The translations under genes were made by a program, and so were the position numbers. The notes beneath the pieces are model-generated. The model ran no database searches. It was not told the DNA's origin and worked only from the letters and a program-made list of their open reading frames with translations. From NCBI GenBank assembly GCA_964016885.1, contig OZ024743.1:8432001-8496000 (forward strand): a stretch of 64,000 nt of DNA. The letters run 5' to 3'. Positions 3,855 through 42,289 of this stretch are shown in pieces. Origin of the DNA: Eledone cirrhosa. Lineage: Eukaryota. Each line of letters opens with the position of its first letter. Positions within the stretch are counted from its first letter, which is position 1.

Positions 3855-6490
3855 TCATCATCATCATCATCATCAGGTTTAGCGTCCGTGTTCCACGCTT
3901 GCATGGGTTTGGACGGAGGTTTTCCCACTTGAGGCAAGAGTGGTTGTCTTGCTCGCATAGGACTGTCTGGCGGGTTTTCTACAGTTGGATGCCCTTCCTA
4001 ACACCAACCACATTTACAGTGTGGGGCTGGGAGGTTTTTACCGTGTTGCCTACACGGCCACATTACAGCGTGGACTGTCTGGCGGGTTTTCTACAGCTGG
4101 ATGCCCTTCCTAACACCAACCACATTTACAGTGTGGGGCTGGGAGGTTTTTACCGTGTTGCCTACACGGCCACATTTACAGCGTGGACTGTGTGTTTTTT
4201 GTCGTGACACCTACACGATCTCATTTGTTTCGGCCTGGATGTTGTGGGACCAACATAACTGTACATTGAAAGGGATGGGGTGGAGGTGGTGGGACGGGGG
4301 GGGGGTGTTTTGATAGAGATGCCTACTGACTGTAGTAGGTTTTTACTTTGTATTTAGGTAAGGCGGGTCTTCTCTATTACTGAGTACCGCCAAAGGTCTC
4401 GGTCCAGTGACATTGTCTTGGAGAGGTGTAAGCGTGTGAGGTCGGAATTTATCAGCTCGTCCCATGTTATTCTGGGTCTGCCTACTCCGTGGCTACCGTC
4501 TATCTTTATTGCCCTGCACTTTGTTATACAGCTGTCGTCTTTCATGCGCATCACGTGACCGTACCAACGTAGCCTTCTCTCGAGTAAACAACATCTGATC
4601 CCTCTTATTTCTAATTTTTTCCTTAGTTCGTTTATGCTTTGCCGTTCACCTATATTACTATTGCACATCCAGCGGAGCATGCAAGCTTTGTTCCTCTCTA
4701 GTCTGCGTATATCCTCTGCACACAATGCCCAGGTCTCACTACCATGCAGCATTGCTGTTCGTATGCAGGCATCGTATAACCTGCCTTTCATTTTTAGGGA
4801 GAACCCTCTAGCGGCTAATAGTGGTATAAGCTCTCTGAACTTTTTCCATCCAGTTCTGACTCTAGCTACTGTACTTTCAGAGCACCCTCCCCCACTGCAG
4901 ATTTTGTCACCCAGGTAACGGAAGCTGTCCACTATTTCTATAGAACCCTCTGCGCAGTTGAAGGAGCTAGTATTTTGTGGGCACTTGCTGCTACTTATTG
5001 CACCAGAGCACCGGCCACATGTAAAATCTATGTTCTTAGTTAGCTTACCTGTGATCCCACTACATCTTTTATGCACCCATACTTTGCATTTGGGACATAA
5101 AATGGAGTTTCTACCTACGCCTTTCCTACACACTGAGCATGGCCATTTCCCAGATGAGACTGCCGCCATATTTTCTTTCCTACAAACTAGAACTTTTGTC
5201 TTAGCCAGGTTAATTTTAAGGCCTTTTGATTCTAGGCCGTGCTTCCATGTTTGGAATTTCTTCTCTAGTTCGGTCATTGATTCAGCTATGAGCGTTAGAT
5301 CATCTGCGTATAGGAGTTCCCATGGGCAGCCGGTCTTGAACTCCTCTGTTATAGCCTGAAGGGCAATAATAAATAGTAGGGGGCTAAGAACAGAGCCCTG
5401 ATGGACACCAACTTTTACGCTAAACTCTTCACTATATTCGTTGTTAATTCTAACCTTACTGACTGTTTCTTTATACATGGCTTGTATAGCTCTCACAAGC
5501 CATTCGTCAACACCTAGTTTTCTAAGAGACCACCAGATAATGGAACGGGGGACTCTGTCGAAGGCTTTCTCCAAGTCGACGAAAGCTAAGTATAGGAGTT
5601 TACTTTTAGCTAGGTACTTCTCCTGTAGTTGTCGTACAATGAAAAGAGCGTCTGTGGTACTTTTGCCTGACACAAATCCGAACTGCATTTCATCTAGATC
5701 AATTCTCTCTCTGATTAGTTGCGCTATTACTTTTTCCGTGACCTTCATGACCTGGTCGATTAATTTAATGCCTCTATAGTTACTCCTATCTAGGGCATCT
5801 CCTTTTCCCTTATAGCAGTTAACGATGATGCTGCTACGCCAGTCCTTCGGAACAACCCCATTCTGTACGACTTGGTTAACTATCCGGGTGACCATGGTGT
5901 GTCCCACCGAACCAGATGCCTTCAGCATCTCAGCAACTATTTCCGAAGGACCAGCCGCCTTACCCGTCTTCATATCTTTGATTGCCTTGCTTATTGTACT
6001 ACCCTGGACTAACACTGCTGGTCCCTCTATTGGGTCGATGTGGGGGAGACTGTCTTTCTCCCATTTGTTCTCCTCATTTAGAAGCCTTTCGTAGTGACAC
6101 TTCCAAGCTACCTTCTTATCAGCGTCGGTGATGGCAAGTATGCCATCATCGTTAAGCACACACTTCTCCCCGACAATATCACGGTTTTCCTTGACACATT
6201 GCCTGGCAATCCTGAACACCTCACGTTTTTGGTCCTCACGTTGTAGAACATGCTTGAACTTTCTTTCCTCTGCTTCCCTTCTTGCGAAGTACACTTGTCT
6301 CCTAGCTTCCCCCCTGGCTACCTGATAGTCTTCTCTACTTCCCCCATCCCGCCATGCTTTCCAAGCCTGCTTTTTGGCCTTAATTGACTCCTCCACCTTA
6401 CTGTTCCACCACCATGTTACTCTCCTCCTACCTACAGGCCTGCTCCAGCCACAGACTTCGTCTGCCGCCGTCAGCAGGTTTGCAAGCCAA
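3855..6490 (-). mobile_element. 5'-truncated RTE-clade LINE with 3' UTR and (GAT)n tail
   Basis: Contains the 716-aa RT ORF; (ATC)n at about 3855-3875 on + is the tail; 113-bp tandem duplication in the 3' UTR (3960-4190). Confidence 0.93.
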
Positions 6491-6504
6491 GAAATATGTG
6501 ACAA
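4354..6504 (-). CDS. RTE ORF: reverse transcriptase plus PHD-like zinc finger, endonuclease missing
   Basis: Motifs KGKGD..SNYRGI, QFGF, FVDLEKAFD, GVHQGSVLSP, LLYADD, FRYLG, RRLRWYGHV; insert CSVC..C..C..WVH..C..C..C. Confidence 0.92.
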   Translation of the reverse strand: MSHISWLANLLTAADEVCGWSRPVGRRRVTWWWNSKVEESIKAKKQAWKAWRDGGSREDYQVARGEARRQVYFARREAEERKFKHVLQREDQKREVFRIARQCVKENRDIVGEKCVLNDDGILAITDADKKVAWKCHYERLLNEENKWEKDSLPHIDPIEGPAVLVQGSTISKAIKDMKTGKAAGPSEIVAEMLKASGSVGHTMVTRIVNQVVQNGVVPKDWRSSIIVNCYKGKGDALDRSNYRGIKLIDQVMKVTEKVIAQLIRERIDLDEMQFGFVSGKSTTDALFIVRQLQEKYLAKSKLLYLAFVDLEKAFDRVPRSIIWWSLRKLGVDEWLVRAIQAMYKETVSKVRINNEYSEEFSVKVGVHQGSVLSPLLFIIALQAITEEFKTGCPWELLYADDLTLIAESMTELEKKFQTWKHGLESKGLKINLAKTKVLVCRKENMAAVSSGKWPCSVCRKGVGRNSILCPKCKVWVHKRCSGITGKLTKNIDFTCGRCSGAISSSKCPQNTSSFNCAEGSIEIVDSFRYLGDKICSGGGCSESTVARVRTGWKKFRELIPLLAARGFSLKMKGRLYDACIRTAMLHGSETWALCAEDIRRLERNKACMLRWMCNSNIGERQSINELRKKLEIRGIRCCLLERRLRWYGHVMRMKDDSCITKCRAIKIDGSHGVGRPRITWDELINSDLTRLHLSKTMSLDRDLWRYSVIEKTRLT

Positions 6505-7900
6505 AAAAAGAATTGATGGTAATATGAGGGTTAACTATAATCGAGGTCAATATTTTGCTGGTTTTCATCAATTTCAAAATTCTACATATATGTGGTGCTA
6601 AAATATTTTCACTTTGGAGGTGAAATTCATTTTTTGATGTGTTTTGAATGAATATGGCCTTCAAAATGGTTGGAAATTGGTAAAAATCATTATGTAATGG
6701 AGTTGTGAAACAAAAACTGTACTCTAAATGACACATAAAACATTTTAAATATCAAAATATTACAACCTCATAAATATATTCTCTATCAATGAGAATGGCA
6801 CCATCTAAACATTATATGTTGATTAGATTTGGCTTATGCATGGGGTTTGAATTTTTGCCTAGTATTTCTCAATTAAAAGGTATGGGTTGGGGGTTATAAC
6901 TGGATTGGCTTATATTTGAGTATGTTTTTTTGTTTATCTTGAAATAATAGTCCCCATTTTTCAATGAATCATCACAAAATTTGGCACAGATCCAGATCAA
7001 TGTCAGAATCATCCACAAAGGAAAAAAAAAATTCAACTCCCATCTGTTCCTGTGATGAAAGAATGAATTACAGAAAAGAGATGAAAGTATCAGTAGAATG
7101 GGTGTGGGAGAAAAAAAAGAAACAGAATGAACCAATTTTTATGTCAAACTCTGTTGTTCTCATTCTTTTCTTTTTCCTCCCCACTTCTCTCTTATATATG
7201 TTTGTGTGTATGTATATGTATTTATAAAATGAATGGAAATCAGTCAATGATTAGCAGTTAATAAATTAGCAAAATTAGCAAAAGGCTCTTCTGGTATATA
7301 TGGTAATGACAAGAAGCAGTAGATAATGATGGTGTATAACAATAGTTTATAAAATAGGGCTGAGAGAACTATTCTGTAGTATGTTGCTACAATAATATGT
7401 ATTCTGCAATATTGTCAAAGTCTTTACTCCTAGTTGTAGAGAAGATTACATTAATAAGGAAAAGAGTGATGGTTATAAGGATGGTGGAGATAATGATAGT
7501 AATGGTGATAATGCTAAAGTAATTGAAATACAGGCATGAAAACATTGGGAAAGAAGTGGTAATGGCGATGGTAGTAGCAATATTACTGAAAATATAAAAT
7601 ATGAAATGTTGAATATTAGGGCTAATACTTATGGCCTGGGAAGAGCTACAGTTTATGGTATGTGCCACAGGTATGACATTATTGCAAACTACCTATTATA
7701 GTAATTCTTTTAGTTTCTATATTTAATGAACAATCTAGCTACAGCCACTTCTGAGCTTTGTAGACTGTGGACAATCCAACATTGCAACAGAATTTTTACA
7801 AATTTTTTAGCTCTGCATCCTGTAAATGTTGATATGACAGCTATTTCTAGTAGGTTGAATGTCAATAAAAACGTTTCCTTATCTTTAGTTAGTAAATAAT

Positions 7901-14054: not shown

Positions 14055-14274
14055 CCCTTTAATGTTCAAACCGGCCAAAACCAGCCAGAATTCTCTACCT
14101 TTTTCTGTTGAAACTGGCTGTAACTGGTCACTCAAACTGATGTTAAGGTATTGTTCTCAAAATAAATACTTTCAAAATCTCATAGATTCGATATTATGTG
14201 AGATAATTATGTGAGATAAAGCATTTACCATGAAAATATAATAGTATATATAGAGTAATGTGAATACTAAAGGG
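14055..14274 (+). mobile_element. piggyBac-type MITE copy 1
   Basis: TTAA-CCCTTTA ... TAAAGGG-TTAA termini. Confidence 0.85.
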
Positions 14275-17482: not shown

Positions 17483-17847
17483 TTTAGTGTTCTGTCAGAT
17501 TCAGGATTTTTTACTTGAGTAAATATCACCGGAATCTAACTACTAATTTTTATACAGAAAAGAATAAGATATATTTACAAAACGCCATATCGAATACAAG
17601 TCTTCAATTTATTGTAACTCCGTTATAATTGTGGTACACAAATATCCTCGCACCTATTTAGGTATAGTCCAAGCCCATAATTAACATGTTCATCTTCCGT
17701 GTTGTCGGTTTGAAGGAAAGCGCCAAAGAGAGAGAGAGCGGGTTGAGTTGCCGCTATTTATAACCTCTTTCCGGAAGTTGCAAAAGAGGGTTCTAGACTT
17801 TCGACGGGAAGTAACTCTAACTACTTCCCTGTCTAGAGAGCGCTACA
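17483..17847 (-). repeat. 3' LTR
   Basis: About 15 differences from the 22024-22389 copy by my count; preceded on - strand by PPT GAGAGGGGAG near 17851-17860. Confidence 0.93.
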
Positions 17848-18182
17848 AGACTCCCCTCTCAGACAAGAAGTCGAATGACCAAATGAAATCATTGTAGCGA
17901 GAACATGAAGAGCAAGGCAAAGGTACAAGAACATGAATGAATAAAATATGAGCAAGCAAATAGCAAAATGAGCATAAAACAAGTAATGCATTTTTACAAA
18001 GAATGTTTGAATGTAACGAATGATAAATCATAGTCATACAAAGGAGCAGAGAATATTGATGCTCAATGGTAAAATCAATGTTTTTCAAAGTCAAATAGTT
18101 CATACAACACTAGTGTACAGACTTTTCTGACACTAGTTCTATCTGAAAACTGAAAAAGAAAAGGTATGTTAATGCATGGGGT

Positions 18183-20900
18183 TTAAATGTATATTGTTTT
18201 TGAGAGTTTTCGTGGCCATTTTACCGTCCTGCCACCTCGTGTGACATAAGGTTGTGTGGTATGTGGTGTTTGCGGTGGAGGTGAAAGTGTTGGTGTAGGA
18301 GTGTATGTACGAAGTGTATCAGGCAGTGTGATGAGACTTTCGGAGAAAGCCTTTTTTGCTCTGTCAATGGATATTGTCTCTTTACGGCCATTGACAGCCA
18401 CTGTGAAATGTTTGGGTGTATGCGAAAGCACACGAAAAGGTCCATTATAAGGTGACGTAAGAGGTTCCTTGACGGAATCATTCAGTATGAAAATGTGTGA
18501 CCACGTAGAGATGTCCAATGGGACAGCAGACGAAATAGATTGGTCACGAGGGCTCATTGGTGGAAGGTCCGAGAAATACAAACGAATCCTGGTGACATAT
18601 GATGCTGGGTCAAGATGTGATGAATCCACTGGTGCTAACATTTTTCCAGGAAGAGTCAATGTGGTACCATAAAGAAGTTCAGCAGAAGAAAAACCTAAAT
18701 CTGTCTTAATGGCAGAACGACAACCAAGAAGCACGATAGGCAAAAATTCAGTCCAACGTTGCGGATCAGGAGTAGCGCGAAGTGCAGCTTTCAACTGTCT
18801 ATGAAATCTCTCGTCCATTCCATTGGAGGCTGGGTGATAGCTGGTCGTATGGATGTGATGAGCACCCAAGAGTCGTGATATTTCACAAAATAAGGAAGCC
18901 TCAAATTGGCGTCCACGATCCGTAGTTATTTTAGTAGGAACACCGAAACGAGCAATCCAATTGGAAATGAAAGCTCGGGCAACGGACTCTGCTGTTATGT
19001 CCATGAGGGGTATGGCTTCAGGCCACCGAGAGAAACGATCGATACAAGTCAATATGTATGTGAACCCACGACTAACGGGCCATGGACCAAAAATATCCAT
19101 GTGTATATGACGGAAACGTGCGTCAGGCGGGCTGAATTTCCCAAGAGGAGCGCAGATATGCCGATGAATCTTAGAATGCTGAGACTTCAAACAAGAACGT
19201 GCCCAACTGGTGATTAAACGACGCATATTAGGCCAGAAGAATCGAGCCGCAATAAGCTTCACCATGGCAGCTATGCCAGGATGTGACAAGGAATGAAGTG
19301 CATCAAAAACGGTACGCTGATGACAATCTGGAACAAGTGGTCTGGGTGAGCCAGTAGAAACATCGCAGAGAATTTTCCCCTCAGAAGATGGAAGAGGTAA
19401 ATATTCCAATTTGCAGCAGGAGAACTGGTCAGAGGAAATGTCCAACGAATCCAAAGTAGGTTGGTCAGTTGCAATGGCAACTAAATCGATATGTGCAGGA
19501 GACGCAAGAGAACACACAGAAAGTCGAGATAGTGCGTCTGCGGGTATGTTGGAAGTTCCAGCTATGTGACGAATGTCACTGGTGTACTGTGAGATGAGAT
19601 CCAGATGTCTATATGCTCTCGGAGAGTACTTGTCGGACTTGGATTGTAAAGCGAATGTTAACGGTTTGTGGTCCGTGAATATCGTGAACTCCCGCCCCTC
19701 CAAAAGGTGGTGGAAGTGCTTCACGGCAAGATAAATTGCCAAAAGTTCTCTGTCAAAGGTGCTGTATCTCTGTTCTGCTGGTTTTAATTGGCGAGAGAAA
19801 AATGCCAATGATTAAACTTGGTGATCGATTACATGATGCAAAACTGCGCCAATAGCACGATCAGATGCATCAACAGATAAGGAAAATCTCGCATTTGCAA
19901 CAAGATAGGCAAGGAAGGAAACTTTAGCTAGCTCAGACTTGACGGATTTAAAAGACTGCAATGCATCGGCAGAAAGTGAAATTTTTTCATCTTTCTTTTT
20001 TGCAGCTCTTAAAAACTGTGTTAAGGGGAATAACTTGTCCGTACAGTTAGGAATAAAGCGACGATAAAAATTAATTAATCCCAAGAAATGGCGTAATTGT
20101 TTCAAGGATGTTGGTGGTGCTAATTGCTGAATTGCCTCTACTTTAGCTGGCAAAGGACGAATGCCTTCTGAATCTAAAAGGTGTCCAAGGAATTCCAGTG
20201 AATCTGCACCAAACACACATTTAGCTGGGTTGATTCTGACTTGGTACGATTGGAGACGTTAAAATAACTGAGATAGATGTTGATGATGGTGTTCATCCGA
20301 ATCACTGGCTATCAGGAGATCATCAACGTAAGCAAACACAAAATCCAATCCACGCGTGACTTCATCGATAAAACGCTGGAACGTACTAGAAGAATTCCGC
20401 AAACCAAAAGGCATGGATAGGAATTCAAACGAACCAAAAGGGGTGGTCACAGCTATTTTTGGTATGTCTTCCGGATGCATGGGTATTTGATGGTAAGCGC
20501 GTACCAGATCTATTTTAGAAAATATCTTGCATCCATGCAGGGCGGATGAAAAATTTGGTAGAGGATAACGATCAAGTGTTGTGATAGCGTTAAGTCGTCT
20601 ATAATCACCCACAGGTCTAAAATCCGCTTCACCCTTACGAGCCAAATGAAGCGGGGATAGGGTGGGGTAGGTCCGCTACAACGAAAATCCATTTGAAATC
20701 CTGACGCAAAGCTAGGTCCAATGATAGAGATATTTGTCCATAAGTTTTTATAGGAGACTAGTTTACTGCATACAAGGAAATACCAGAAAAATTTGGCTTG
20801 GTACAGCTGAAATGAAGGGGCCAAATACTGCAGCTAGATCTTGTGTCGACCATAAACGATTTGTTTGAAGTTCGACCTTTTATAAAAAAAAAGGCACGAT
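18183..20900 (-). pseudogene. Gypsy pol (protease, RT, RNase H, integrase), frameshifted with an internal deletion
   Basis: MVDTRSSCS (protease), [59 protein letters not shown]. Confidence 0.92.
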
Positions 20901-20959
20901 AAGGAGAATTAATGAGGAAGAGATCTGCCGTGCCCAGATTCTCCAGGTTTAGTTTTCCG

Positions 20960-21750
20960 AAGTCCCGAAAGAGCAGGGTTGAATGCAATGATTCGCCTTT
21001 TCACGAAAACGCACGCGATACCAACATAAAGACGAGTCATTGGCGGAGGTTTCTGCACGACGTTGAAAAAAAGGAGAACGACTTCATGGACGCCATCTGG
21101 AATGTGTTCGTTCTTGACACACTTTAGTCACTTGACGAGTTAGCACGTCAATGGCTCTCAATATAGAGTCCTCACGAGGTGGAACAGGCTGTGCTTTAAG
21201 AGTAGCAGAAGCAATGTGTGGATCTGCTGAAGTAGGTACTCGAGAAAATTCCATTATGCGGTCCGCTGAGGCTGCAATTTGGTCCAGAGAACTGGTGTCG
21301 ACTATATTTGCCAGTATGGTCTGCACATTTGTTGGCAAACGGGAGAAGAAGAATTGTTTTACGAAAGAGTTATCCTCTGACGTTGAGTCGCTCAGCTCTC
21401 AGATGCACCGTAAAAACTGGGACGGGGTTCTATCTCCCAGGTTTTCCTCCTCCAACAAGGAACGAAATTTGCTCTCAGACGAACGGCTGTTCCGTCTGAA
21501 CACTTCTGCCTTAAGGGTCTCGTAAGTGGGGGATCTGGATGATATCCTTTACTGACACGGCGAGCGAGGCAGGGATTCCGCTTATGAGCACATGTAACCT
21601 TTGTTGTACCGCTTGTACGCCATATGCAACAAAATGCGAATCTAGTTGTGCAAACCACAACTCTGCATTGCCTGAATACGTCGGTAGCGAAGAATTGCTC
21701 ATCATGAATGTAGTAGCCGCCGGGTGAAATGTTTTTTTTAACTGCCGCAC
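20960..21750 (-). pseudogene. Gypsy gag, frameshifted
   Basis: LPTYSGNAELWFAQLDSHF, PTNVQTILA..LDQIAASADRIME, CHCC knuckle near 20975-21030. Confidence 0.85.
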
Positions 21751-22008
21751 ATGTGGTTTAACTTCCGCGAATCAGCCAATGACAACACATTTGAAAGAAA
21801 ATTAGTTGTATTTTCAAAAATATATATACGCACGTGGTGGTAACATGAATGGCTGAAGTGATGTAACACGGAGGAAACAAAATGGCGAATACAAAACGAA
21901 GGCTTTGTTGAAAATGAAAAACACAAGGTGTAAAAAAAATTTTTTTTATTTTCTTTATGCGTATCCGGGAAGTATCATTTTTTTTTTTTTTTTTTTTGGT
22001 ATTTCTGT

Positions 22009-22022
22009 ACGTCGGGTCACCA
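22009..22022 (-). promoter_or_regulatory. Primer binding site, tRNA-Trp-like
   Basis: TGGTGACCCGACGT versus TGGTGACCCCGACGT expected for tRNA-Trp (one C missing). Confidence 0.75.
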
Positions 22023-22023
22023 T

Positions 22024-22389
22024 TTTAGTGTTCTGTCAAACCCAGGATTATTTACTTGAGTAAATATCACCAGAATCTAATTACTAATTTTTTATACTGA
22101 AAAGAATAAGATATATTTACAAAACGCCATATCGAATACAAGTCTTCAATTTATTGTAACTCCGTTATAATTGTGGTACACAAATATCCTCGCACCTATT
22201 TAGGTATAGTCCAAGCCCGTGATTAACATGTTCATCTTCCGTGTTGTCGGTTCGAAGGAAAGCACCAAAGAGAGAGAGAGCGGGCTGAGTTGCCGTTATT
22301 TATAACCTCTTTCCGGAAGTTGCAAAAGAGGGTTCTAGACTTTCGATGGGAAGTAACTCTAACTACTTCCCTGTCTAGAGAGTGCTACA
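22024..22389 (-). repeat. 5' LTR
   Basis: Starts TGTAG on - strand; followed by the PBS. Confidence 0.93.
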
Positions 22390-23740
22390 GTATCATAGAA
22401 ATAGGTACACTGTATCAGTGTGTGTTGTAAGAAGTGACTAAAAGGGAGTAAAATGTCTCACCCAACCTATGCCAACATGAAAAGGTCAATATAAAAACAC
22501 TATCCATGTTCATTACTTCACATACAAACACTCCATAAAATTTTAACTCACCAGCTTTAACCTCCTCCACACACATATCTCCCATTACCCAAGGCAACTA
22601 CATCCTAATGCCTCATACTCTATCCAGATTAATCACTCTGCCTAAGATCACCCACAAGCCCTGAAATCCTAACATATCAGTCATACCATCATGCCCCTTT
22701 GGAGTAGGGAGGGCTCTTCAGTTGAGTCAATAACTAAAATCTTCATAGAACTGGAAACTATTCCAAAAAGGGTCAAGAGGACATTCCAGTTGTTTCAAGG
22801 GCATAACAGCTTCTCTACTTTTAGTGATTTATATGATAAACACACTCAATATACTGTTAAGTGATTGGTGACAGGAAGGATATCCAGCCATAGACAATTT
22901 GCCAAACAAAGGGTTGAGAGGACTCTTCAGTTACATGATAAACACATCCAGTACACTCTATAAAGAATTTGGTGATAAGAAGGGCATCAAGCTGTAGAAA
23001 ACCTGCCAAACAAAGGGGTGTGTGGGCTCTTCAGCTGTTTCAAAAGATATGACAACCTCCCTAGTGCTGGTGCCATGATAAAATGTACTCGGTAGAGCAT
23101 GGAAACATTTTTATAAGTGAAATGTGGGCCCCTAGCCTTCCTGAGCACTCAGTACAGTGTAAGAACATAAGTGAGTGAGACAGAGCCCTGGCACATCTGA
23201 GAGGTCAATAACTCTGTTTGGGTACTGACTTTGTCTGCTGCAAACAGTCTAACTCTTGCTAGCAGGCTAAAATGAATTTTAAATGATGATGATGGTGACT
23301 ATATAATATTTACAGATGTAGTTTAACCTAACTAGTTATGTTGTTGAGTGATAAATATATTTCAGAAGAAAAAACATCAGAAAAAATAGATTTAAAAATG
23401 TAATTTGAAAGATAGAAGGAATGACCAGCTCTCTGTAATATAGTAAAATGGACATCATGTAATTTGTGTCCCATCAGTGGTTCTGTTCCATTTTTTTTTA
23501 GACAAATCGGTGTTAATAATGACTAATATTATATGTACCCATGCTCCGTCTAACCCATGCTAGCATGGAAAATGGACATTACACGATGAGGATGATATTA
23601 ACATAAAACATTGATGATTTATGATGCAATATTCTGAAAGAACAGGAATATTGAACATTATTTTGATGTGATTTTTCAATAACTAATTAATGTATTAAAT
23701 GTTTAATTTATTCAAATGTTGTTCTTTTTCTTATGAATAG

Positions 23741-23765
23741 AAACATGGACACGATCCAACATCAG
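23741..23765 (+). CDS. WDR97: WDR97-like exon D (25-nt micro-exon)
   Basis: ttctttttcttatgaatag acceptor, KHGHDPTS, consensus donor CAG|gtaagt; its 0-1 phase is exactly what joins exons C and E in frame. Confidence 0.75.
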
Positions 23766-24229
23766 GTAAGTATTCTGATTTCTTTCTAAGTTTCTTAAGA
23801 TTTAATTGGAAATAATTGATCAGATAAAAGAAAATCTAGTTAGAATTAACAGATGAGTAAAAGAACTATTTCCAAGAGGCCATTTTGCAAACCACTTCAA
23901 TAATGATTCACAATGGCTGGTGACTTTATTGGTATGGTACAGGGAATGAGGAGAGATCAAAGATCCTCTGATACAATTAATAATTTTTATAATTTTATCA
24001 TTTTGAATAGTACTAAAATACTAAAACTAGCACTAAGATTAATAAAAATAATTTTATCAATAATAAATATAAATATATATTAAAGAATAATTTGATAATA
24101 ATGATAATAAAAATAATAATATGACTCACAACATCATGAATATCAAAAATAATTTTACTAATGATAGTAATAACTATGGCGAAGTATTTGTTTTGCAAGG
24201 TTTTTGATATGAAATCGTGAGTTGAAACA

Positions 24230-24410
24230 GATATTGTTATATTTGAGGAGGGTCATATTATCCTAATATTGCCAAAAATTAGTAAAACATACTTACTGTT
24301 TGGTTTGGGTTTTACTTTAGTTTCTGAAAACCAAACCAAACAGTAAGTGTGTTTTACTATTTTTTGGCAATATTAGGACAATATGACCCTTCCCAAATAT
24401 AGTAATAACT
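24230..24410. repeat. About 180-bp palindrome (MITE-like)
   Basis: gggtcatattatcctaatattgccaaaaa.tagtaaaaca.acttactgtttggtttgg pairs with its reverse complement across about 15 nt. Confidence 0.85.
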
Positions 24411-24503: not shown

Positions 24504-24690
24504 GGCGGTGGATTGGCAGTATCAGTAGAGGGTCGGATGCCATGCTTTGACGCATAGAGTTACGGCCCTTGCCATTCTGAGTTCAAATCCCGCCGAGGTT
24601 AACTTTGTCTTTCATCCTTACGGGGTCGATAAAATAAAGTACCAGTAATACCCTGTGTAATTGCTGGCCTTGTGCCTAACGTAGAAACAA
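24504..24690 (+). mobile_element. SINE A with TSD
   Basis: Full length; attaatgaaata at 24492 and 24690. Confidence 0.9.
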
Positions 24691-24771
24691 TTAATGAAAT
24701 AGGGATTTAATGAATAAATAAAGATAAAGATGTTGTCTGTGAAGTAATGTTTAGTTAATGTTTGTTAATAA

Positions 24772-24950
24772 TTGTTTCTATTTTTGGCACAAGGCCAGCA
24801 ATTACCCAGTACGTTACTGGTACTTTATTTTATCGACCCCGTAAGGATGAAAGGCAAAGTTAACCTCAGCGGGATTTTAACTCAGAATGGCAAGGGCCGT
24901 AACTCTATGTGTCAAAGCATGGCATCCGACCCTCTATCGATACTGCCAAT
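24772..24950 (-). mobile_element. SINE A with TSD, inverted relative to both neighbours
   Basis: tttgttaataat at 24761 and 24950. Confidence 0.9.
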
Positions 24951-25691: not shown

Positions 25692-25836
25692 AAAAGAAAT
25701 TTGACCCATATAATGTGGAAATATCTCATCTGGACACACTGAAGAACTTCTGTGATATTAAAAATAAAAGATCACAAGAAATGTCGTTATCTGCTGTTTC
25801 CGAAACCCAAGAAACTAAATCTGAGATTAAATCTGA
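25692..25836 (+). CDS. WDR97: WDR97-like exon E
   Basis: catatag acceptor, 145 nt, (E)KKFDPYNVEISHLDTLKNFCDIK...EIKS, donor gtaagt; phase 1-2. Confidence 0.85.
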
Positions 25837-26513
25837 GTAAGTAGACATTAATTAAGGATTTCAAACTTAAAATAATGGCAGTGGAAAATTTCCTCAGAGT
25901 ATCTTCTGCATAAAGAACATATAACTAAGTGTAGACTAATGTGATGCGTTGGAAATAATTTTTTATCAACTGAAACTATAATCATAATGAGAATAAGTGT
26001 TTAGTGTTAATGAAAGTACCTTTGAAAGGGGCTAGGGGAAGAACTTCAAAAATTTCTATTGACCCAAAATTAAATGGAGATCTACAGTGGGAAGTGAGTT
26101 CAATCTGTGGTGACTGTGATGGTAACTTTGGACTTGTTTCAATCTTGTTATACCTCCTCAGCAAAATTTAGTCAACACACAACTAGTAACACTTCAGAAT
26201 AACTAAAAGATCCGATCTCAAATCAATGAATCTCACAGCTGGGTTGATGAATGACCCCAATGAATGGAGGGATGCTGTGCTGGAAAGGACCCATCCAACC
26301 CTTGCAACCATGGAAAAATGGACATAAAACGGTGATAAAAATGATGACATAATAGACAACTATGTATATTAACCCACAGGTTTTTAGATAGATAATCATA
26401 CATATTTCATGTATTAATGTTTAACCCCACCTTTTTAAAAAGCAGTGATAATGACTGTGATAAGCAGTGATAATGATAATGATAGTTGTTTGTTATAAAT
26501 AAGATTAACCTCT

Positions 26514-26680
26514 GAAGGCACATGGCTTAGTGGTTAGAGCATTGGGCTTGCAATCGAAAGGTTGTGAGTTCAATTCTCAGACCGGGGGATGTATTGTTTC
26601 CTTGAGCAAGACACTTTATTTCACATTTCTCCAGTTTACTCAGCTGTAGAAATGAGATGATAGGACTGGAGTCCCTATCA
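26514..26680 (+). mobile_element. tRNA-derived SINE family B (CORE-like centre)
   Basis: A box tggcttagtgg, B box gagttcaattc, tccttgagcaagacacttt; decayed relative near 14850-15030. Confidence 0.75.
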
Positions 26681-27010
26681 TTCCACTGCAAAGTGGTCGT
26701 GGAGGTACCATGGCAAAAAAAGCACCCAGCCCACACTGTAAAGTGGACGTGTAGGGGCCACGGAAAAAAAGCACCCAGCACTCACTGTAAATGAGGTTGG
26801 TGTTAGGAAGGGCATCCAGCTTGCTAGAATCAGTTCCTGTATGAGCAAGACAAGGTCAGCCAACCGGACACTGCCCACAACAGGACAACCCATCTAACCC
26901 ATGCTAGCGTGGAAGAACGGATGTAAAACGGTGATGATGATGATGAAGATTGTCTGTGTATTGTTATAGATTAATTTTCTATGTTGTTAATTCATTTTTA
27001 TCATATCTAG

Positions 27011-27172
27011 ACACTCTGACACTGCCATGGATGAAATCAGCATTCCTACCAAAGTTTCTACATCCACTTCTCATATATCTAAGTCAGAAGAAAAAGAAAA
27101 AACTGCAGTGCCACTGAAGTTGCGCAAAAAACGAGCCCACCTGTTGAGACGCAGACATAAAATGTTCGCTAG
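27011..27172 (+). CDS. WDR97: WDR97-like exon F (Ser/Thr-rich then Arg/Lys-rich)
   Basis: atctag acceptor, 162 nt, (E)HSDTAMDEISIPTK...KLRKKRAHLLRRRHKMFA(R), donor AG|gtatgc; phase 2-2. Confidence 0.8.
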
Positions 27173-27410
27173 GTATGCAGACTTAATTATTAAAGATTTC
27201 AAAATTAAAATAATGACAGAAGAAATTTTTTTCAGGGTGCCTACTGCATAAAGAACTAAGTGTAGGCTACTATGCTTAATGTGATGAGCTGGAAGTAATT
27301 TTTAATCAACTGAAAATGGAATTATAATAAGAAAATAAGTTATTACAGTTAGTGAAAATTGCTCTAAAATGTGGAGTACAAGGTAGAGAACTCATAAAAT
27401 TTATATTAAT

Positions 27411-27631
27411 CCTTTAGAATTTAAACCGTCTGTATTCAGCCAGAATTCTCTCACCTCTTTCTGTTCAAACCGGCTGTAACCAGCCGCTCATACTGATGTT
27501 AAGGTATTGTTCTTAAAATAAATAATATCAAAATTTCATAGATTTGATATTATATGAGATGATTATGTAAGGTAAAGCCTTTACTGTGAAAATACAATAG
27601 TAAATATAGAGTAGTGTAAATGCTAAAGGAT
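27411..27631 (+). mobile_element. piggyBac-type MITE copy 4
   Basis: TTAA-TCCTTTAG ... CTAAAGGA-TTAC, same internal sequence. Confidence 0.8.
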
Positions 27632-27908
27632 TACCAACAAATCAGTTATATACATATAATAGACAGCTATGTGTTACCTATGCATTTTTAGATAGATCAT
27701 CATACATGTTTAATGCATTTCTGTTGTAATTTTACTGTTACTTTTACTGTCACTTTTATAATCAGAAGAACCTGTCTTCTTCCAACTAACAGAGAAGGCA
27801 GTGGTAATAATAGAGATGATGATTTTAGATAATGTACAGTTATTTTATATAAATATGATGTTGTGTTTTATTATAGATGAGTTTTTAATGTTAATTCATT
27901 TTCATTAG

Positions 27909-27983
27909 ATCTAGGCGTTTACTCCGAAGAGTGAGTTTTACCGTGAGAGGAGCACACATTATCATTCCCCAATGGAAAATTAA
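27909..27983 (+). CDS. WDR97: WDR97-like exon G (alternative in-frame acceptor would start at 27915)
   Basis: ttcattag|atctag| tandem acceptors, (R)SRRLLRRVSFTVRGAHIIIPQWKI(K), donor gtaagt; phase 2-2. Confidence 0.75.
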
Positions 27984-28384
27984 GTAAGTAGACTTACATA
28001 TTAATTAAGGATTTCAAAATTGAAATAATGACTGGAAAATTTCCTCAGGGTACCTTCTGCATGAAAAACATATAACTAAGTGTAGGCTACTCTGTTTAAT
28101 GTGAGGAGATGTAAATAATTTTTGATCAACTAGAAATATAATCATAATGTGAAGATAAGAGATAATTGTTAATGAAAGTACCTCTGAAAAAAGCCAGGGG
28201 AAGAACTTCCTAAATTTCTATTTATCAAAAATCAAATGGAGATCTACAGTGGGAAGTGAGTTCAATCTTTGGTGGCTGTGGTGGTAACTATGGACTTGTT
28301 TCAATCTTGTTATACCCCCTCAGCAAAGTTTAGTCAACACACAACTAGCAACACTTCAGAATAACTAACATATTTAATTTTCTA

Positions 28385-28567
28385 TTTTTCTACTTTTGGC
28401 TCAAGGCAGGCAATTTGAAGGGAAGGTGAAAGTTGATTAAAGCGACCCCGTATTAATGAAAGGCAAAGCTAACCTTGGCGGGATTTGAACTCAGAATGTA
28501 AATGGTCATAACTATATGCCACAAAGCATGTTGCCGAATGCTCTACTGATATTGCCAATCCACCGTC
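28385..28567 (-). mobile_element. SINE A
   Basis: Matches the family consensus. Confidence 0.8.
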
Positions 28568-29147
28568 TTATATAATAATGACACCATGATCATCATCATA
28601 ATTTAATACTCATTTCCCATGACTTTCCTATCACTACCCATTTACAGAGTGTACTGGGTGCATTTATCCTGTAGACCACCAACACTAGAAAGGTTGCTGT
28701 GCCCTTGATTCAACTGAAGAATCCTCTTGATCCTTTTTTTTCTCCATGGTTTCTATAGCTGAATGCCCTTCCTATCACCAACCACCTTGCAGGCTGTACT
28801 GGGTGCATTGTTCATGGTAGCAGCATTAAAGGTGCCATTGTGTCATGACAGGATGGTCCTCTCAACCGTTTATGACATTGTTTCTATGACTTGAAGCCTT
28901 TCATAACACCAAGCACTTTATTGGGTGTATTTTTCTTGACACCAGGACTAGAGTGGTTGTCAGTCATTGACTCAACTGAAGAGCCCTCTCAACACTATGG
29001 AGAGGGGTGTAGGATGGGAATAGGATGTGGGATGTAAGTGAAAATGGAAAATTAACTATATGTGCAATTCTGCTTAAACAGACATATAATTACATGCAAT
29101 TGATCTTACCTAATGTGGTAAAGCAAAAATACTTTTTAATCAACTGT

Positions 29148-29781
29148 GAGAGAAGACTACGTTGGTATGGTCACGTGATGCACATGAAAGATGACAGCTG
29201 TATAAAAAAGTGCAGGGCGATCAAAATTGATGAAGTTAGGGAGTAGGTAGACCCAGAGAAACCTGGGACAATTTGATAAATTCCGACCTTACACACTTGC
29301 ACCTCTCTAAGACAATGTCACTGGACCGAGATCTTTGGCGCCACGTAGTAATACAGAAGACCCGCCTTGCCTATGTACAAAGCGAAACCTACAGTCAATA
29401 GGCACCTCTTAACCAAATATACATCCCAACCCACTACCCCTACTCCATCCTCCCACTACCACCAACACCACCCTTTCTCTGTAAAGTTATGTTGGTACCA
29501 CAACATCCAGTCTCCAAACTAATGAGGTCACGTAGGTGTCACGATAAAAAAAACACAGTCCACGCTGTAATGTGGCCGTGTAGGTAACACGGTAAAAAGC
29601 TCCCAGTCCACACTGTAAATGTGGTTGGTGTTAGGAAGGGCATCCAGCCATAGAAAACCTGCCAGATAGTCCTATACAAGCGAGACATGGTCACCCGACC
29701 AAACTTGCCTCAAGTGGGACAATTCCCATCTAACCCTTGCTAGCGTGGAAGATAGACGTTAAACGATGATGATGATGATGA
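29148..29781 (+). mobile_element. 3' end of the same RTE family as 3855-6490, opposite orientation
   Basis: ERRLRWYGHVMHMKDDSCIKKCRAIKID, colinear 3' UTR, (GAT)n tail. Confidence 0.9.
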
Positions 29782-30435
29782 CTACATGAAGAAAAGTGAC
29801 TTTTGTTAGTGAAAATTTATCTCAAAAGTGGCAAAGTAGAGAATACTTAAAATCCAAATCCACCAATATACAGATAGTAGACAACTTGTGCATTTTCAAA
29901 TAGATAATCATACATGCTTTATGTATTTATGAAAAGGAATGTATGTATATAAGATGTGATGTTGCATGGCTGTGAGACATGGCAGGGAATGCAGAGGATA
30001 TGTGAAAGCTGAAGACAAAATGTAGTGTGAATGCTTCATTGGATGTGTCATGTTAGTGTGCATGAATGAAGCAGCATGCTGAACTGAGAGAAAAACTGTG
30101 TATAAGAGGAATCAGATGTAGTCATCATCATCATTCTATGTCCACTTTTCCCTGCTTGCAAGAAAATATTGAAAATTAAAAAGAAAATAATTATAAATTA
30201 GTTATTTCCTTTTGATTGCCTACTTGTCTAATAGAGCTAAGTTTGTAAAGCTGAGATTATAAAGGACTCCATGATGAGAATTAAGCTTGCCATAAGGCCC
30301 ACAATGTTTATCCTTTCCTTAGCAGGGGAAATGACCTTGAAATGCTTGTTATTGTATTTGATTACTTTAAAATCCTAATCATCTGTAACTAACTACATTG
30401 GCAGTCAGTAGGTTAATTCTAATTTTCATTTTCAG

Positions 30436-30506
30436 ATATCTTACACGCTATGGAGAGACAGCTATCAGAAAATGTGATCCAAGAAGGGAAACTACGTTTT
30501 ATACCA
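30436..30506 (+). CDS. WDR97: WDR97-like exon H
   Basis: ttttcattttcag acceptor, 71 nt, (K)YLTRYGETAIRKCDPRRETTFYT, donor gtaagt; phase 2-1. Confidence 0.85.
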
Positions 30507-31600: not shown

Positions 31601-31827
31601 ATTATGGAAAACCTCCACTTTCTTACATCAGTTATTTGCCCCACCAGCTGTATAAGGATCCCTGGGGTAGAAATATCCAGTTTCCTCTGTCAGTATTGGA
31701 GCTGGATCCATTTGATAGTATTCAGGGCAATGAAGAATTGAGACGAAAATATCCCCAACTGATTAGTTTACAAAATATGCGGAAGTATTTCATCCATGCA
31801 ATGTCTTTGGTCTCACCACTTAAATAA
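31601..31827 (+). CDS. WDR97: WDR97-like terminal coding exon
   Basis: ttacag acceptor, (N)YGKPPLSY...IQFPLSVLELDPFD...LISLQNMRKYFIHAMSLVSPLK-stop; resembles the recalled WDR97 C-terminus (LKLPLPRVEPQPFP...LQRYFLP). The nine exons total 1269 nt = 422 codons + stop. Confidence 0.85.
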
Positions 31828-36968: not shown

Positions 36969-37479
36969 CGTGTGCGTATATAAATATATGTATCTCTCTC
37001 TCTCGCTCTCCCTCTCTCTTTCTATATATATATATATATAAGAATACATTTGTAAATACCTGTACTGAGTGATACATGTTTACATATACGTAATAAAACG
37101 ATGCACATACGTATACTGTATAGCGAATATTCTAGTGGTTAACATTGAAAAGAAAAAAACATATTTTGACACGAATAGTATGTTAGTCTTTCTAAAATCA
37201 GATTAAGCTCTGAAACATTTATTATGACACTAAGTCGATATTACATCATTGGTTTTAAATTTAGTTAGATTATTGTGAATGTTTATTTCTGTTATTCAGA
37301 GTCATTTTTCTATTTACCTTATATTTCTAATGCTGGGAGATGTTTTATATTAAATATTATTTTGTCTTGTTTTCTTCGGTTTTGTTTTAAACAAGCACTT
37401 ATTGTTCTCTTGCGTTATTGAGCGGATAGAGACGTAAAAACATAAGTGACTTGGACAGCAAAGAGAGAGCGAGAGGGAA

Positions 37480-40400
37480 GGGGGGAGATTTAGAGAGAGT
37501 CAGGTAGATTTGGAAAATGAGAGAGAGGGGGCGATGAGAGAGATTTAGAGAGAGTCAGGTAGATTTGGAAAATGAGAGAGAGGGGGCGAGGAGAGAGATT
37601 TAGAGAGAGTTAGGTAGGCTTGGGAAAAGAGAGAGAGGGGGCGAGGAGAGAGATTTAGAGAGAGTCAGGTAGATTTGGGAAAAGAGAGAGAGGGGGCGAG
37701 GAGAGAGATTTAGAGAGAGTTAGGTAGGCTTGGGAAAAGAGAGAGAGGGGGCGAGGAGAGAGATTTAGAGAGAGTCAGGTAGATTTGGGAAAAGAGAGAG
37801 AGGGGGCGAGGAGAGAGATTTAGAGAGAGTTAGGTAGGCTTGGGGAAAGAGAGAGAGGGGGCGAGGAGAGAGATTTAGAGAGAGTTAGGTAGGCTTGGGA
37901 AAAGAGAGAGAGGGGGTGAGGAGAGAGATTTAGAGAGAGTCAGGTAGGCTTGGGAAAGAGAGAGAGGGGGCCAAGAGAGAGATTTAGAGAGAGTCAGGTA
38001 GATTTGGGAAAAGAGAGAGAGGGGGCGAGGAGAGAGATTTAGAGAGAGTTAGGTAGGCTTGGGAAAAGAGAGAGAGGGGTGAGGAGAGAGATTTAGAGAG
38101 AGTTAGGTAGGCTTGGGAAAAGAGAGAGAGGGGGTGAGGAGAGAGATTTAGAGAGAGTTAGGTAGGCTTGGGAAAAGAGAGAGAGGGGGCGAGGAGAGAG
38201 ATTTAGAGAGAGTTAGGTAGGCTTGGGAAAAGAGAGAGAGAGAGAGAGAGTGTGTGAGTGAGGCAGACTGAGGTTGAGATAGAAGGGAGAAGGAGGAGAC
38301 ACCTTTAGAGAGAGTTAGGTAAACTTGGGAAAAGAGAGAGAGAGAGTGTGTGTCTGTGTGAGTGAGGCAGACGGAGATTAAGATAGAGGGGGGAAAGGAG
38401 AGAGAGTGAGGTGGACTTGAGCAAAGAGAGAGAGAGAGAGAGAGAGAGGCAGACTGAGGTTGAGATAGTGGTGGAGAAGGAGGAGAGAGATTTAGAGAGT
38501 GAGGTGGACTTGAGCAAAGAGAGAGAGGGGCGATGAGAGAGATTTAGAGAGAGTCAGGTAGATTTGGAAAATGAGAGAGAGGGGGCGAGGAGAGAGATTT
38601 AGAGAGAGTTAGGTAGGCTTGGGAAAAGAGAGAGAGGGGGCCAAGAGAGAGATTTAGAGAGAGTTAGGTAGATTTGGGAAAAGAGAGAGAGGGGGCGAGG
38701 AGAGAGATTTAGAGAGAGTTAGGTAGGCTTGGGAAAAGAGAGAGAGGGGGCGAGGAGAGAGATTTAGAGAGAGTTAGGTAGGCTTGGGAAAAGAGAGAGA
38801 GGGGGCGAGGAGAGAGATTTAGAGAGAGTTAGGTAGGCTTGGGAAAAGAAAGAGAGGGGGCCAAGAGAGAGATTTAGAGAGAGTTAGGTAGGCTTGGGAA
38901 AAGAGAGAGAGGGGGTGAGGAGAGAGATTTAGAGAGAGTTAGGTAGGCTTGGGAAAAGAGAGAGAGGAGGTGAGGAAAGAGATTTAGAGAGAGTTAGGTA
39001 GGCTTGGGAAAAGAGAGAGAGGGGGCGAGGAGAGAGATTTAGAGAGAGTTAGGTACGCTTGGGAAAAGAGAGAGAGGGGGCCAAGAGAGAGATTTAGAGA
39101 GAGTTAGGTAGATTTGGGAAAAGAGAGAGAGGGGGCGAGGAGAGAGATTTAGAGAGAGTTAGGTAGGCTTGGGAAAAGAGAGAGAGGGGGCGAGGAGAGA
39201 GATTTAGAGAGAGTTAGGTAGGCTTGGGAAAAGAGAGAGAGGGGGCGAGGAGAGAGATTTAGAGAGAGTTAGGTACGCTTGGGAAAAGAGAGAGAGGGGG
39301 CCAAGAGAGAGATTTAGAGAGAGTTAGGTAGATTTGGGAAAAGAGAGAGAGGGGGCGAGGAGAGAGATTTAGAGAGAGTTAGGTAGGCTTGGGAAAAGAG
39401 AGAGAGGGGGCGAGGAGAGAGATTTAGAGAGAGTTAGGTAGGCTTGGGAAAAGAGAGAGAGGGGGCGAGGAGAGTGATTTAGAGAGAGTTAGGTAGGCTT
39501 GGGAAAAGAGAGAGAGGGGGCGAGGAGAGAGATTTAGAGAGAGTTAGGTAGGCTTGGGAAAAGAGAGAGAGGGGGCGAGGAGAGAGATTTAGAGAGAGTT
39601 AGGTACGCTTGGGAAAAGAGAGAGAGGGGGCCAAGAGAGAGATTTAGAGAGAGTTAGGTAGATTTGGGAAAAGAGAGAGAGGGGGCGAGGAGAGAGATTT
39701 AGAGAGAGTTAGGTAGGCTTGGGAAAAGAGAGAGAGGGGGCGAGGAGAGAGATTTAGAGAGAGTTAGGTAGGCTTGGGAAAAGAGAGAGAGGGGGCGAGG
39801 AGAGAGATTTAGAGAGAGTTAGGTACGCTTGGGAAAAGAGAGAGAGGGGGCGAGGAAAGAGATTTAGAGAGAGTTAGGTAGGCTTGGGAAAAGAGAGAGA
39901 GGGGGCCAAGAGAGAGATTTAGAGAGAGTCAGGTAGATTTGGGAAAAGAGAGAGAGGGGGTGAGGAGAGAGATTTAGAGAGAGTTAGGTAGGCTTGGGAA
40001 AAGAGAGAGAGGGGGCGAGGAGAGAGATTTAGAGAGAGTTGGGTAGGCTTGGGAAAAGAGAGAGAGGGGGTGAGGAGAGAGATTTAGAGAGAGTTAGGTA
40101 GGCTTGGGAAAAGAGAGAGAGGGGCGAGGAGAGAGATTTAGAGAGAGTTAGGTAGGCTTGGGAAAAGAGAGAGAGGGGCGAGGAGAGAGATTTAGAGAGA
40201 GTTAGGTAGGCTTGGGAAAAGAGAGAGAGGAGGTGAGGAGAGAGATTTAGAGAGAGTTGGGTAGGCTTGGGAAAAGAGAGAGAGGAGGTGAGGAGAGAGA
40301 TTTAGAGAGAGTTAGGTAGGCTTGGGAAAAGAGAGAGAGGAGGTGAGGAGAGAGATTTAGAGAGAGTTGGGTAGGCTTGGGAAAAGAGAGAGAGGAGGTG

Positions 40401-42289
40401 AGGAGAGAGATTTAGAGAGAGTTAGGTAGGCTTGGGAAAAGAGAGAGAGAGGAGGTGAGGAGAGAGATTTAGAGAGAGTTAGGTAGGCTTGGGAAAAGAG
40501 AGAGAGGGGGCGAGGAGAGAGATTTAGAGAGAGTTAGGTAGGCTTGGGAAAAGAGAGAGAGGAGGTGAGGAGAGAGATTTAGAGAGAGTTAGGTAGGCTT
40601 GGGAAAAGAGAGAGAGGGGGCGAGGAGAGAGATTTAGAGAGAGTTAGGTAGGCTTGGGAAAAGAGAGAGAGGGGGCGAGGAGAGAGATTTAGAGAGAGTT
40701 AGGTAGGCTTGGGAAAAGAGAGAGAGGAGGTGAGGAGAGAGATTTAGAGAGAGTTAGGTAGGCTTGGGAAAAGAGAGAGAGGGGGCGAGGAGAGAGATTT
40801 AGAGAGAGTTAGGTAGGCTTGGGAAAAGAGAGAGAGGAGGTGAGGAGAGAGATTTAGAGAGAGTTAGGTAGGCTTGGGAAAAGAGAGAGAGGAGGTGAGG
40901 AGAGAGATTTAGAGAGAGTTAGGTAGGCTTGGGAAAAGAGAGAGAGGAGGTGAGGAGAGAGATTTAGAGAGAGTTAGGTAGGCTTGGGAAAAGAGAGAGA
41001 GGGGCGAGGAGAGAGATTTAGAGAGAGTTAGGTAGGCTTGGGAAAAGAGAGAGAGGGGCGAGGAGAGAGATTTAGAGAGAGTTAGGTAGGCTTGGGAAAA
41101 GAGAGAGAGGGGGTGAGGAGAGAGATTTAGAGAGAGTTGGGTAGGCTTGGGAAAAGAGAGAGAGGAGGTGAGGAGAGAGATTTAGAGAGAGTTAGGTAGG
41201 CTTGGGAAAAGAGAGAGAGGAGGTGAGGAGAGAGATTTAGAGAGAGTTAGGTAGGCTTGGGAAAAGAGAGAGAGAGGAGGTGAGGAGAGAGATTTAGAGA
41301 GAGTTAGGTAGGCTTGGGAAAAGAGAGAGAGGGGGCGAGGAGAGAGATTTAGAGAGAGTTAGGTAGGCTTGGGAAAAGAGAGAGAGGAGGTGAGGAGAGA
41401 GATTTAGAGAGAGTTAGGTAGGCTTGGGAAAAGAGAGAGAGGGGGCGAGGAGAGAGATTTAGAGAGAGTTAGGTAGGCTTGGGAAAAGAGAGAGAGGGGG
41501 CGAGGAGAGATATTTAGAGAGAGTTAGGTAGGCTTGGGAAAAGAGAGAGAGGAGGTGAGGAGAGAGATTTAGAGAGAGTTAGGTAGGCTTGGGAAAAGAG
41601 AGAGAGGAGGTGAGGAGAGAGATTTAGAGAGAGTTAGGTAGGCTTGGGAAAAGAGAGAGAGGGGGCGAGGAGAGAGATTTAGAGAGAGTTAGGTAGGCTT
41701 GGGAAAAGAGAGAGAGGGGGCGAGGAGAGATATTTAGAGAGAGTTAGGTAGGCTTGGGAAAAGAGAGAGAGGAGGTGAGGAGAGAGATTTAGAGAGAGTT
41801 AGGTAGGCTTGGGAAAAGAGAGAGAGGGGGCGAGGAGAGAGATTTAGAGAGAGTTAGGTAGGCTTGGGAAAAGAGAGAGAGGAGGTGAGGAGAGAGATTT
41901 AGAGAGAGTTAGGTAGGCTTGGGAAAAGAGAGAGAGGAGGTGAGGAGAGAGATTTAGAGAGAGTTAGGTAGGCTTGGGAAAAGAGAGAGAGGAGGTGAGG
42001 AGAGAGATTTAGAGAGAGTTAGGTAGGCTTGGGAAAAGAGAGAGAGGGGGCGAGGAGAGAGATTTAGAGAGAGTTAGGTAGGCTTGGGAAAAGAGAGAGA
42101 GAGAGTGTGTGTGAGTGAGGCAGACTGAGGTTGAGATAGAAGGGAGAAGGAGGAGACACCTTTAGAGAGAGTGAGGTAAACTTGGGAAAAGAGAGAGAGA
42201 GTGTGTGTCTGTGTGAGTGAGGCAGACAGAGATTGAGATAGAGGGGGGGAAGGAGAGAGATTTAGAGAGAGTGAGGTGGACTTGAGCAA

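Follow-up and report, generated by a model that had tools for sequence, protein, structure and literature searches.

Three consecutive introns of a WDR97-like gene of the octopod Eledone cirrhosa derive, judged by their sequences, from the copying of a single intron, and this copying probably also gave rise to F and G, the two predicted exons that separate them. The gene ends in a stretch of 64,000 nucleotides (nt), hereafter the window, which is positions 8,432,001 to 8,496,000 of the forward strand of contig OZ024743.1 (assembly GCA_964016885.1). Our preferred reading, to which we assign a probability of roughly 0.6, is that a unit comprising the whole intron together with the end of exon E before it and the start of exon H behind it was duplicated in tandem twice. 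This would have produced chimeric phase-2 exons whose later remodelling outran that of the introns. The ancestor would have had one phase-2 intron between E and H, and each duplication would have fused a start of H to an end of E, giving the predicted exons F and G. The features of the locus, in window coordinates, are as follows.

25692..25836, forward strand: exon E, 145 nt, phase 1 to 2; its 5' half is conserved and its 3' half remodelled.
25837..27010, forward strand: intron copy 1 (U1), 1174 nt, with donor, repeat copy 'a', mid motif, later repeat insertions and acceptor.
25865..26212, forward strand: full 'a' copy of an old dispersed repeat in U1.
26349..26403, forward strand: copy 1 of the locus-specific mid-intron motif.
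27011..27172, forward strand: predicted new exon F, 162 nt, phase 2-2; it begins with ~30 nt similar to the start of H.
27173..27908, forward strand: intron copy 2 (U2), 736 nt, with a hybrid repeat (a-type 5' half, b-type 3' half), an inverted-repeat element, mid motif and acceptor.
27407..27632, no strand assigned: high-copy inverted-repeat element inserted in U2, resembling a miniature inverted-repeat transposable element (MITE).
27656..27707, forward strand: mid-intron motif copy 2.
27909..27983, forward strand: predicted new exon G, 75 nt, phase 2-2; its end resembles the linker end of the orthologues.
27984..30435, forward strand: intron copy 3 (U3), 2452 nt, with donor, 'a' copy, other repeats, 'b' copy, mid motif and acceptor.
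28028..28372, forward strand: full 'a' copy of the old dispersed repeat in U3.
29038..29866, forward strand: truncated 'b' repeat copy (U4), interrupted at 29148-29781 by a 3' fragment of a long interspersed nuclear element (LINE).
29874..29915, forward strand: mid-intron motif copy 3.
30436..30506, forward strand: exon H, 71 nt, phase 2 to 1, the conserved LTRxGET exon.
31601..31826, forward strand: exon I, the last coding exon, with the stop.

As originally predicted, the introns after E, F and G are all in phase 2 and F and G are frame-neutral. Both are phase-symmetric with lengths divisible by three, as the proposed cassette exons would be. The chain B-C-D-E-F-G-H-I is open throughout, and the direct join of E to H is likewise in frame. 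E, F, G, H and their junctions were matched with 0 differences by Logan contigs from three runs of one sample (the type of the runs is not on record, and the sample is possibly that of the assembly); the structure of the locus from E to H is thus not an assembly artefact. The homologous acceptor of F appears displaced by 8 nt. Exon G has an alternative in-frame start at 27915, behind a second AG at 27913, that would shorten it to 69 nt. The two in-frame AGs before G (27907-27914) are 6 nt apart; the second aligns best with the acceptor of F and the first with that of H. In addition, the extreme end of exon E (25813-25837) holds, by eye, a 12-nt tandem repeat, a sign of recent remodelling there, and the 25-nt micro-exon D (23741-23765), which is required for the frame, has the same length as in the orthologue.

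Self-comparison of the region from 24.5 to 31.5 kb confirmed the predicted homology of the intron starts. Positions 25836-26206 and 27983-28368 were 85% identical over 388 nt, 27170-27369 and 27981-28189 were 76% identical, and 27189-27357 and 25851-26015 were 74% identical. From the donor GT onward, matched intron segments were 79-90% identical, with gaps left out and segment boundaries picked by eye. Identical positions numbered 112/132, 120/141 and 123/137 for the three pairs of the donor-proximal 130 nt, 114/144 for the b-half and mid motif of U2 against U4, 57/72 and 51/62 for the mid motif and 48/60 for the acceptors; donor-proximal segments were 85-90% alike and distal ones 79-82%. The first 30 nt past the GT lie outside the stretch covered by the profile of the dispersed repeat family, and both U1/U3 and U1/U2 were more alike there than any random GT-anchored stretch (0/5999 each). 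The mid-intron motif, said earlier to recur at three sites, does so: a pattern built from the three local copies themselves had 3 matches in the 3.0-Gb genome, all at the locus (26349, 27656 and 29874), and its reversed control had 0. Moreover, the acceptor regions before F, G and H align, as had been noticed, with 5 of 6 test pairs at p<0.05 versus 1 of 12 controls (I/H, p=0.027). The copies are direct and adjacent and are closer to each other than to copies outside the locus.

The original prediction had set a dispersed repeat against its own interpretation. The 5' block of the introns did prove to be dispersed, with 26 genomic matches, a lower bound, of which 3 are local and 23 are elsewhere (66-88% identity), but local duplication was not refuted by this. 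From 22 fetched loci, 31 repeat copies were recovered. Their profile covers the introns only from about position +28, with no match to the mid motif or to the acceptors. The repeat tree included 21 dispersed copies of at least 150 columns (10 shorter ones were dropped), and placed U1, U2 and U3 in one clade (97/94*) with U1 and U3 as a subclade (98/90*). Local copies were 62-64% identical on average to the dispersed ones. The local clade, the locus-only mid motif and the 30-nt donor match together suggest that an old repeat lay at one donor and that the intron was then copied locally, in line with the predicted duplication of a single ancestral intron. The element itself (loci L004-L010 and L013-L027) is AT-rich, old and ~350-430 nt long, with a mean identity of 61% between copies; it frequently occurs in direct or inverted pairs and has a GTGAA-like 5' end. 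This 5' end falls at about the donor position. A GT-type word was found near the projected donor in 6 of 17 dispersed copies and in 83 of 642 background windows, and is taken to be the end of the element itself. In L005, a candidate exon ahead of the dispersed copy had only a sub-threshold Pfam match (E 0.01) and was dropped.

A fourth, exon-less copy of the intron had also been proposed. Its sequence is present, at 29038-29146 and 29788-29866, split by a fragment that matches the end of a LINE at 3858-4581, presumably of the RTE type. Its kinship with the other three is another matter: in the family alignment, U4 was 59-64% identical to U1-U3, the same level as dispersed copies. Its grouping in the tree, with one of the dispersed copies, was weak, and a clade of all four local copies was neither shown nor rejected (approximately unbiased test, p-AU 0.36). 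U4 is thus probably a second old repeat copy that was already within the ancestral intron. The 5' half of U2 was 83% identical to U1/U3 and 60% to U4, and its 3' half was 69% identical to U4 and 62-65% to U1/U3. Both U2 and U4 lack the last ~120 nt of the element, which U1, U3 and most dispersed copies keep in part or whole, and both pass directly from the repeat into the mid motif. The arrangement of two copies, a and b, is present in intron 3 and at several dispersed loci. The ancestral intron may therefore have carried a and b ahead of the mid motif; intron 3 would keep this layout, intron 2 would have fused a and b by recombination and intron 1 would have lost b. A two-copy ancestral intron appears to be the simplest account, although it was drawn up after seeing the data, and it requires no lost third new exon; under it, every matched segment lies within 79-90%. 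A block duplication of [U1,U2] into [U3,U4] with loss of a fourth exon was rejected, given that U4 is 59-64% identical to all local copies and that the 5' half of U2 is a-type. The inverted-repeat element (25456, 27443) was likewise rejected as a duplication marker, since it is high-copy and 89% identical to its neighbour versus 83-89% to the copies at 14088 and 15584. In the intron after exon A, a LINE-like element has a 726-aa open frame on the reverse strand at 4357-6534, and its 3' end matches the LINE fragment in U4.

The exons between these introns were predicted to share no clear similarity. This holds for whole exons, as 0 of 10 pairs aligned beyond shuffles (p<0.05), unlike the products of classical tandem exon duplication, but short candidate relics were found. 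The start of F resembles the start of H for ~30 nt beyond the acceptor, beaten by only 8 of 8000 AG-anchored stretches (shuffle p=0.003); among 15 exon-start comparisons 2 were significant, both between F and H. The ends of F and G match at 25 of 51 nt, ungapped and at an in-frame offset (p=0.006 and 0.010), with 9, 9 and 8 of 17 matches at the three codon positions. Finally, the end of G resembles the linker end of the orthologues (p=0.024; E 0.66, F 0.89; 1 of 3 tests). A match of 25/51 is well under the intron level (binomial p 3e-5 at 76%, an intron figure without gaps and hence generous). On these alignments the exons are more diverged than the introns, and the predicted origin of F and G as chimeric, frame-neutral exons that changed faster than their introns is supported. 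The redundant coding copies may have been reworked by insertions and deletions (indels) and substitutions at a pace exceeding that of the introns: G would have retained the ancestral linker end beside H, E would have lost it and F would have drifted to an arginine-rich run. Selection, indel remodelling or conversion of the introns may lie behind the greater divergence of the exons. Exon F with its acceptor and exon G with the 3' part of U2, used as DNA queries, and F as a protein query recovered nothing but themselves, and the same searches were insensitive enough to miss the known local paralogues.

The host gene was identified by a profile scan with exon A, which recovered one clear relative, the WD40 protein XP_036357017.1 of Octopus sinensis (P0001); word-based protein searches with single exons gave no match. 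Relatives of P0001 carry the database name WDR97-like in O. vulgaris, O. bimaculoides and a crinoid, and there are decapod forms besides. All 15 genomic matches to P0001 were collinear in a single locus that ends in the window (from the stricter first look in the search), this gene being the only match to P0001 in the genome, and no stops were found in the 756+342 aa examined. The identity to the Octopus protein was 58% in the N-terminal pieces and 36-37% in the C-terminal part. In the tree, a long branch leads to the protein, which groups as the sister of Octopus (100/100). By collinearity and tree placement, the gene is an intact, single orthologue of the Octopus WDR97-like gene, and the predicted WDR97-like host stands. 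Pfam had no match for exon A, exon I or the C-terminal half of the decapod protein.

The WDR97-like proteins compared were P0001, P0013, P0005, P0029 and P0030, and the linker was taken to run from the conserved NYFC-type helix to the LTRxGET motif of exon H. It is 37, 37 and 47 aa long in Octopus, 43 and 43 aa in decapods and 42 aa in the short crinoid isoform. In the gene of E. cirrhosa it is 108 aa with F and G and 29 aa without them (E alone), so that the protein with both exons exceeds the cephalopod orthologues by 61-71 aa. F and G had been proposed as new exons, and the annotated Octopus and decapod proteins indeed lack them. Crinoid isoform P0030 differs from P0007/P0031 by an alternative insert of 89-90 aa with a basic run at the E/H junction, by eye without likeness to F or G; from its sequence it is an independent insert at the site of F and G. 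That crinoid isoforms differ by an insert there indicates that the junction tolerates inserts.

Together F and G would add 79 aa with a net charge of about +15, likely a basic extension of a flexible linker. Within it lies a stretch with 14 K/R in 27 residues, including 10 Arg. A protamine is a small free protein dominated by Arg clusters. That definition does not fit ten Arg within 27 residues inside a large WD40 protein, and Pfam had no match for F or G. The protamine-like label of the original prediction is unsupported, and so is the NLS-like one, for which the sequence offers a basic composition. In a structure model of the decapod C-terminal half, a helix at 375-392 is followed from residue 393, where the insert would fall, by low confidence, weakly suggesting that the insert site is a flexible linker; with 7 sequences and a mean predicted local distance difference test (pLDDT) score of 48.6, the model is too shallow to prove disorder. 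At a guess, the extension might serve as a binding patch for nucleic acids, microtubules or import receptors.

Several results weigh against two tandem duplications with chimeric exons. The exon relics are faint: the start of G did not match that of H (4020 of 8000 controls were as good), a gapped anchored test of exon ends gave nothing significant (F/G 1764, E/G 3517 and E/F 1874 of 6000), and 1 of 8 control exon-end pairs reached p=0.013. E and G share only ~8 nt although they flank the most similar introns (88%). Third codon positions of F and G are as diverged as the others, unlike the prediction of simple positive selection, and lineage acceleration of the whole gene was not significant (relative-rate chi2 0.15-2.88 in 6 tests). 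The lack of F and G in Octopus and decapods was seen in a comparison of proteins. In addition, U2 and U4 as whole-element sisters were marginally rejected (p-AU 0.043). A mosaic U2 would produce this value, but the mosaic reading was formed post hoc.

Two alternatives concern what F, G and the shared repeat are. Independent insertions of the dispersed repeat behind three pre-existing donors would agree with the 23 matches elsewhere and with a family 5' end at about the donor position. However, the local copies form one clade, they are only 62-64% identical on average to dispersed copies, and they have in common a mid motif found nowhere else in the genome as well as their acceptors. The mid-motif genome search and the repeat tree largely refute such insertions, which we consider very improbable. 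It is distinctly unlikely that F, G or both are pseudo-exons in a block that is spliced out whole, from E to H, and decays neutrally. The in-frame E-H join, the donor of F (GTATGC), which is weaker than the neighbouring GTAAGT sites, and a fast exon divergence compatible with absent constraint would suit this. Neutral exons should nevertheless be as alike as the introns, not less, and E alone would give a linker shorter than that of any orthologue and without its conserved end. F and G are also open and bounded by AG and GT, with an exon-like GC content of 0.41-0.42 versus 0.26-0.32 in the introns. In a simulation of neutral decay, both exons with all splice dinucleotides stayed intact in 0.004 of runs at 12.5% change per lineage (0.057 at 6%, 0.0004 at 20%); the simulation is crude, with one-base deletions only, and scores open frame and splice dinucleotides.

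Two further alternatives keep F and G as exons. They may be old exons from much older duplications, with introns homogenised later by gene conversion while selection spared the exons. The sharp fall of homology at the donor GT, the closer likeness of donor-proximal than of distal intron segments and the divergence of third codon positions to the level of first and second ones fit conversion, which we hold to be unlikely: F and G, which no Octopus or decapod protein seen contains, can be no older than the Octopus split, all intron segments, acceptors included, fall within one band of 79-90%, and the tracts would need to span three whole introns exactly. Quite unlikely, too, is intron transposition, in which a linker exon grew by ~65 aa and its downstream intron was copied twice into new phase-2 sites, by reverse splicing or a DNA-level copy, leaving E, F and G as parts of one old exon. 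Homology that begins at GT and stops near AG would then be expected, as would the unrelated ends of E and G, the retention of the ancestral linker end by G alone and the lack of any whole-exon alignment. The limits of homology are indeed sharp at the donors, but at one acceptor it extends ~30 nt into F, where F resembles H, and the ends of F and G match in frame. Transposition would also require a separate linker expansion at the same spot together with three phase-2 introns, and it predicts no coding gain, yet the linker is 61-71 aa longer in the protein comparison. Few cases of intron transposition have been reported; PMC3443670 gives only 14 such events, in Mycosphaerella and Oikopleura, none demonstrated in vivo. 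If transposition were true, the exon relics would be due to chance and the locus, with an octopod intron that copied itself twice, would be a datable metazoan case outside Oikopleura that bears on how new introns spread.

Under the preferred reading of tandem duplication, the locus is a new instance of a known process, internal gene duplication, and the introns are a better record of it than the exons. Similar to other internal gene duplications (Gao and Lynch, 2009, and Kondrashov and Koonin, 2001, as cited in PMC3342872 and bioRxiv 10.1101/009282), a local DNA duplication in one gene added exons and paralogous introns. In these sources, tandem exon duplications are put at 7-17% of metazoan genes (PMC3342872) and intragenic duplication is described as thoroughly studied and well understood (bioRxiv 10.1101/009282); PMC3449122, PMC8975721 and PMC7853320 provided background only. 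Different from the usual tandem exon duplication, the unit here is centred on a whole intron rather than a whole exon; F and G would each combine two exon ends and be used in series instead of excluding each other, and they are nearly unrecognisable now, whereas the introns are still 79-90% alike. Homologous introns at different positions with dissimilar coding sequence between them are also a mark of intron transposition and introner-like elements (PMC3443670). Unlike introner-like elements, however, there is one locus here, coding length grew and homology leaks into F, and the dispersed relatives are fragments without the mid motif instead of whole-intron copies in unrelated genes. Intron number also rises when an AGGT-containing exon segment undergoes tandem genomic duplication, as outlined in PMC3443670; there the intron comes from exon sequence with new splice sites, whereas here a pre-existing intron would have been copied with its sites. 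Literature searches for paralogous introns with divergent new exons and for introns more conserved than exons each found no paper, most subscription journals being outside the search.

The coding sequence is more diverged than the adjoining introns, which resembles abalone sperm genes, where exons reportedly outpace introns, in comparisons of orthologues with measured nonsynonymous rates (Metz et al., 1998, as cited in PMC7853320). Different from the abalone case, the copies are within one gene and the ratio of nonsynonymous to synonymous rates (dN/dS) is not computable. If the duplication reading holds, the locus would be a readable example of how an intron and scraps of its neighbours can yield frame-safe new exons, whose origin exon-to-exon searches would miss and the introns alone record. 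On that reading, the E/H junction of WDR97-like proteins would have taken basic inserts twice, in this octopod and in the crinoid. Biological reach is small for now because WDR97 function is unstudied among the papers found: among the matches listed, the search on WDR97 gave no functional study by title or abstract opening, and the cephalopod literature gave none on this gene by title.

Other elements were also observed in the window. The intron before E contains a long inverted repeat at 24512-24950 with 182-nt arms at 92%, a high-copy element, and another inverted repeat at 24229-24410 with 84-nt arms at 89%. On the reverse strand at ~17500-22390 lies what we take to be a long terminal repeat (LTR)-retrotransposon-like element, with presumed reverse transcriptase- and integrase-like frames broken by stops; its ends near 17500-17850 and 22040-22390 look similar by eye. 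Finally, two tandem arrays were found, one of 4.6 kb with a 55-nt unit at 37464-42101, and one with 9.6 copies of an 80-nt unit at 97% at 1622-2390.

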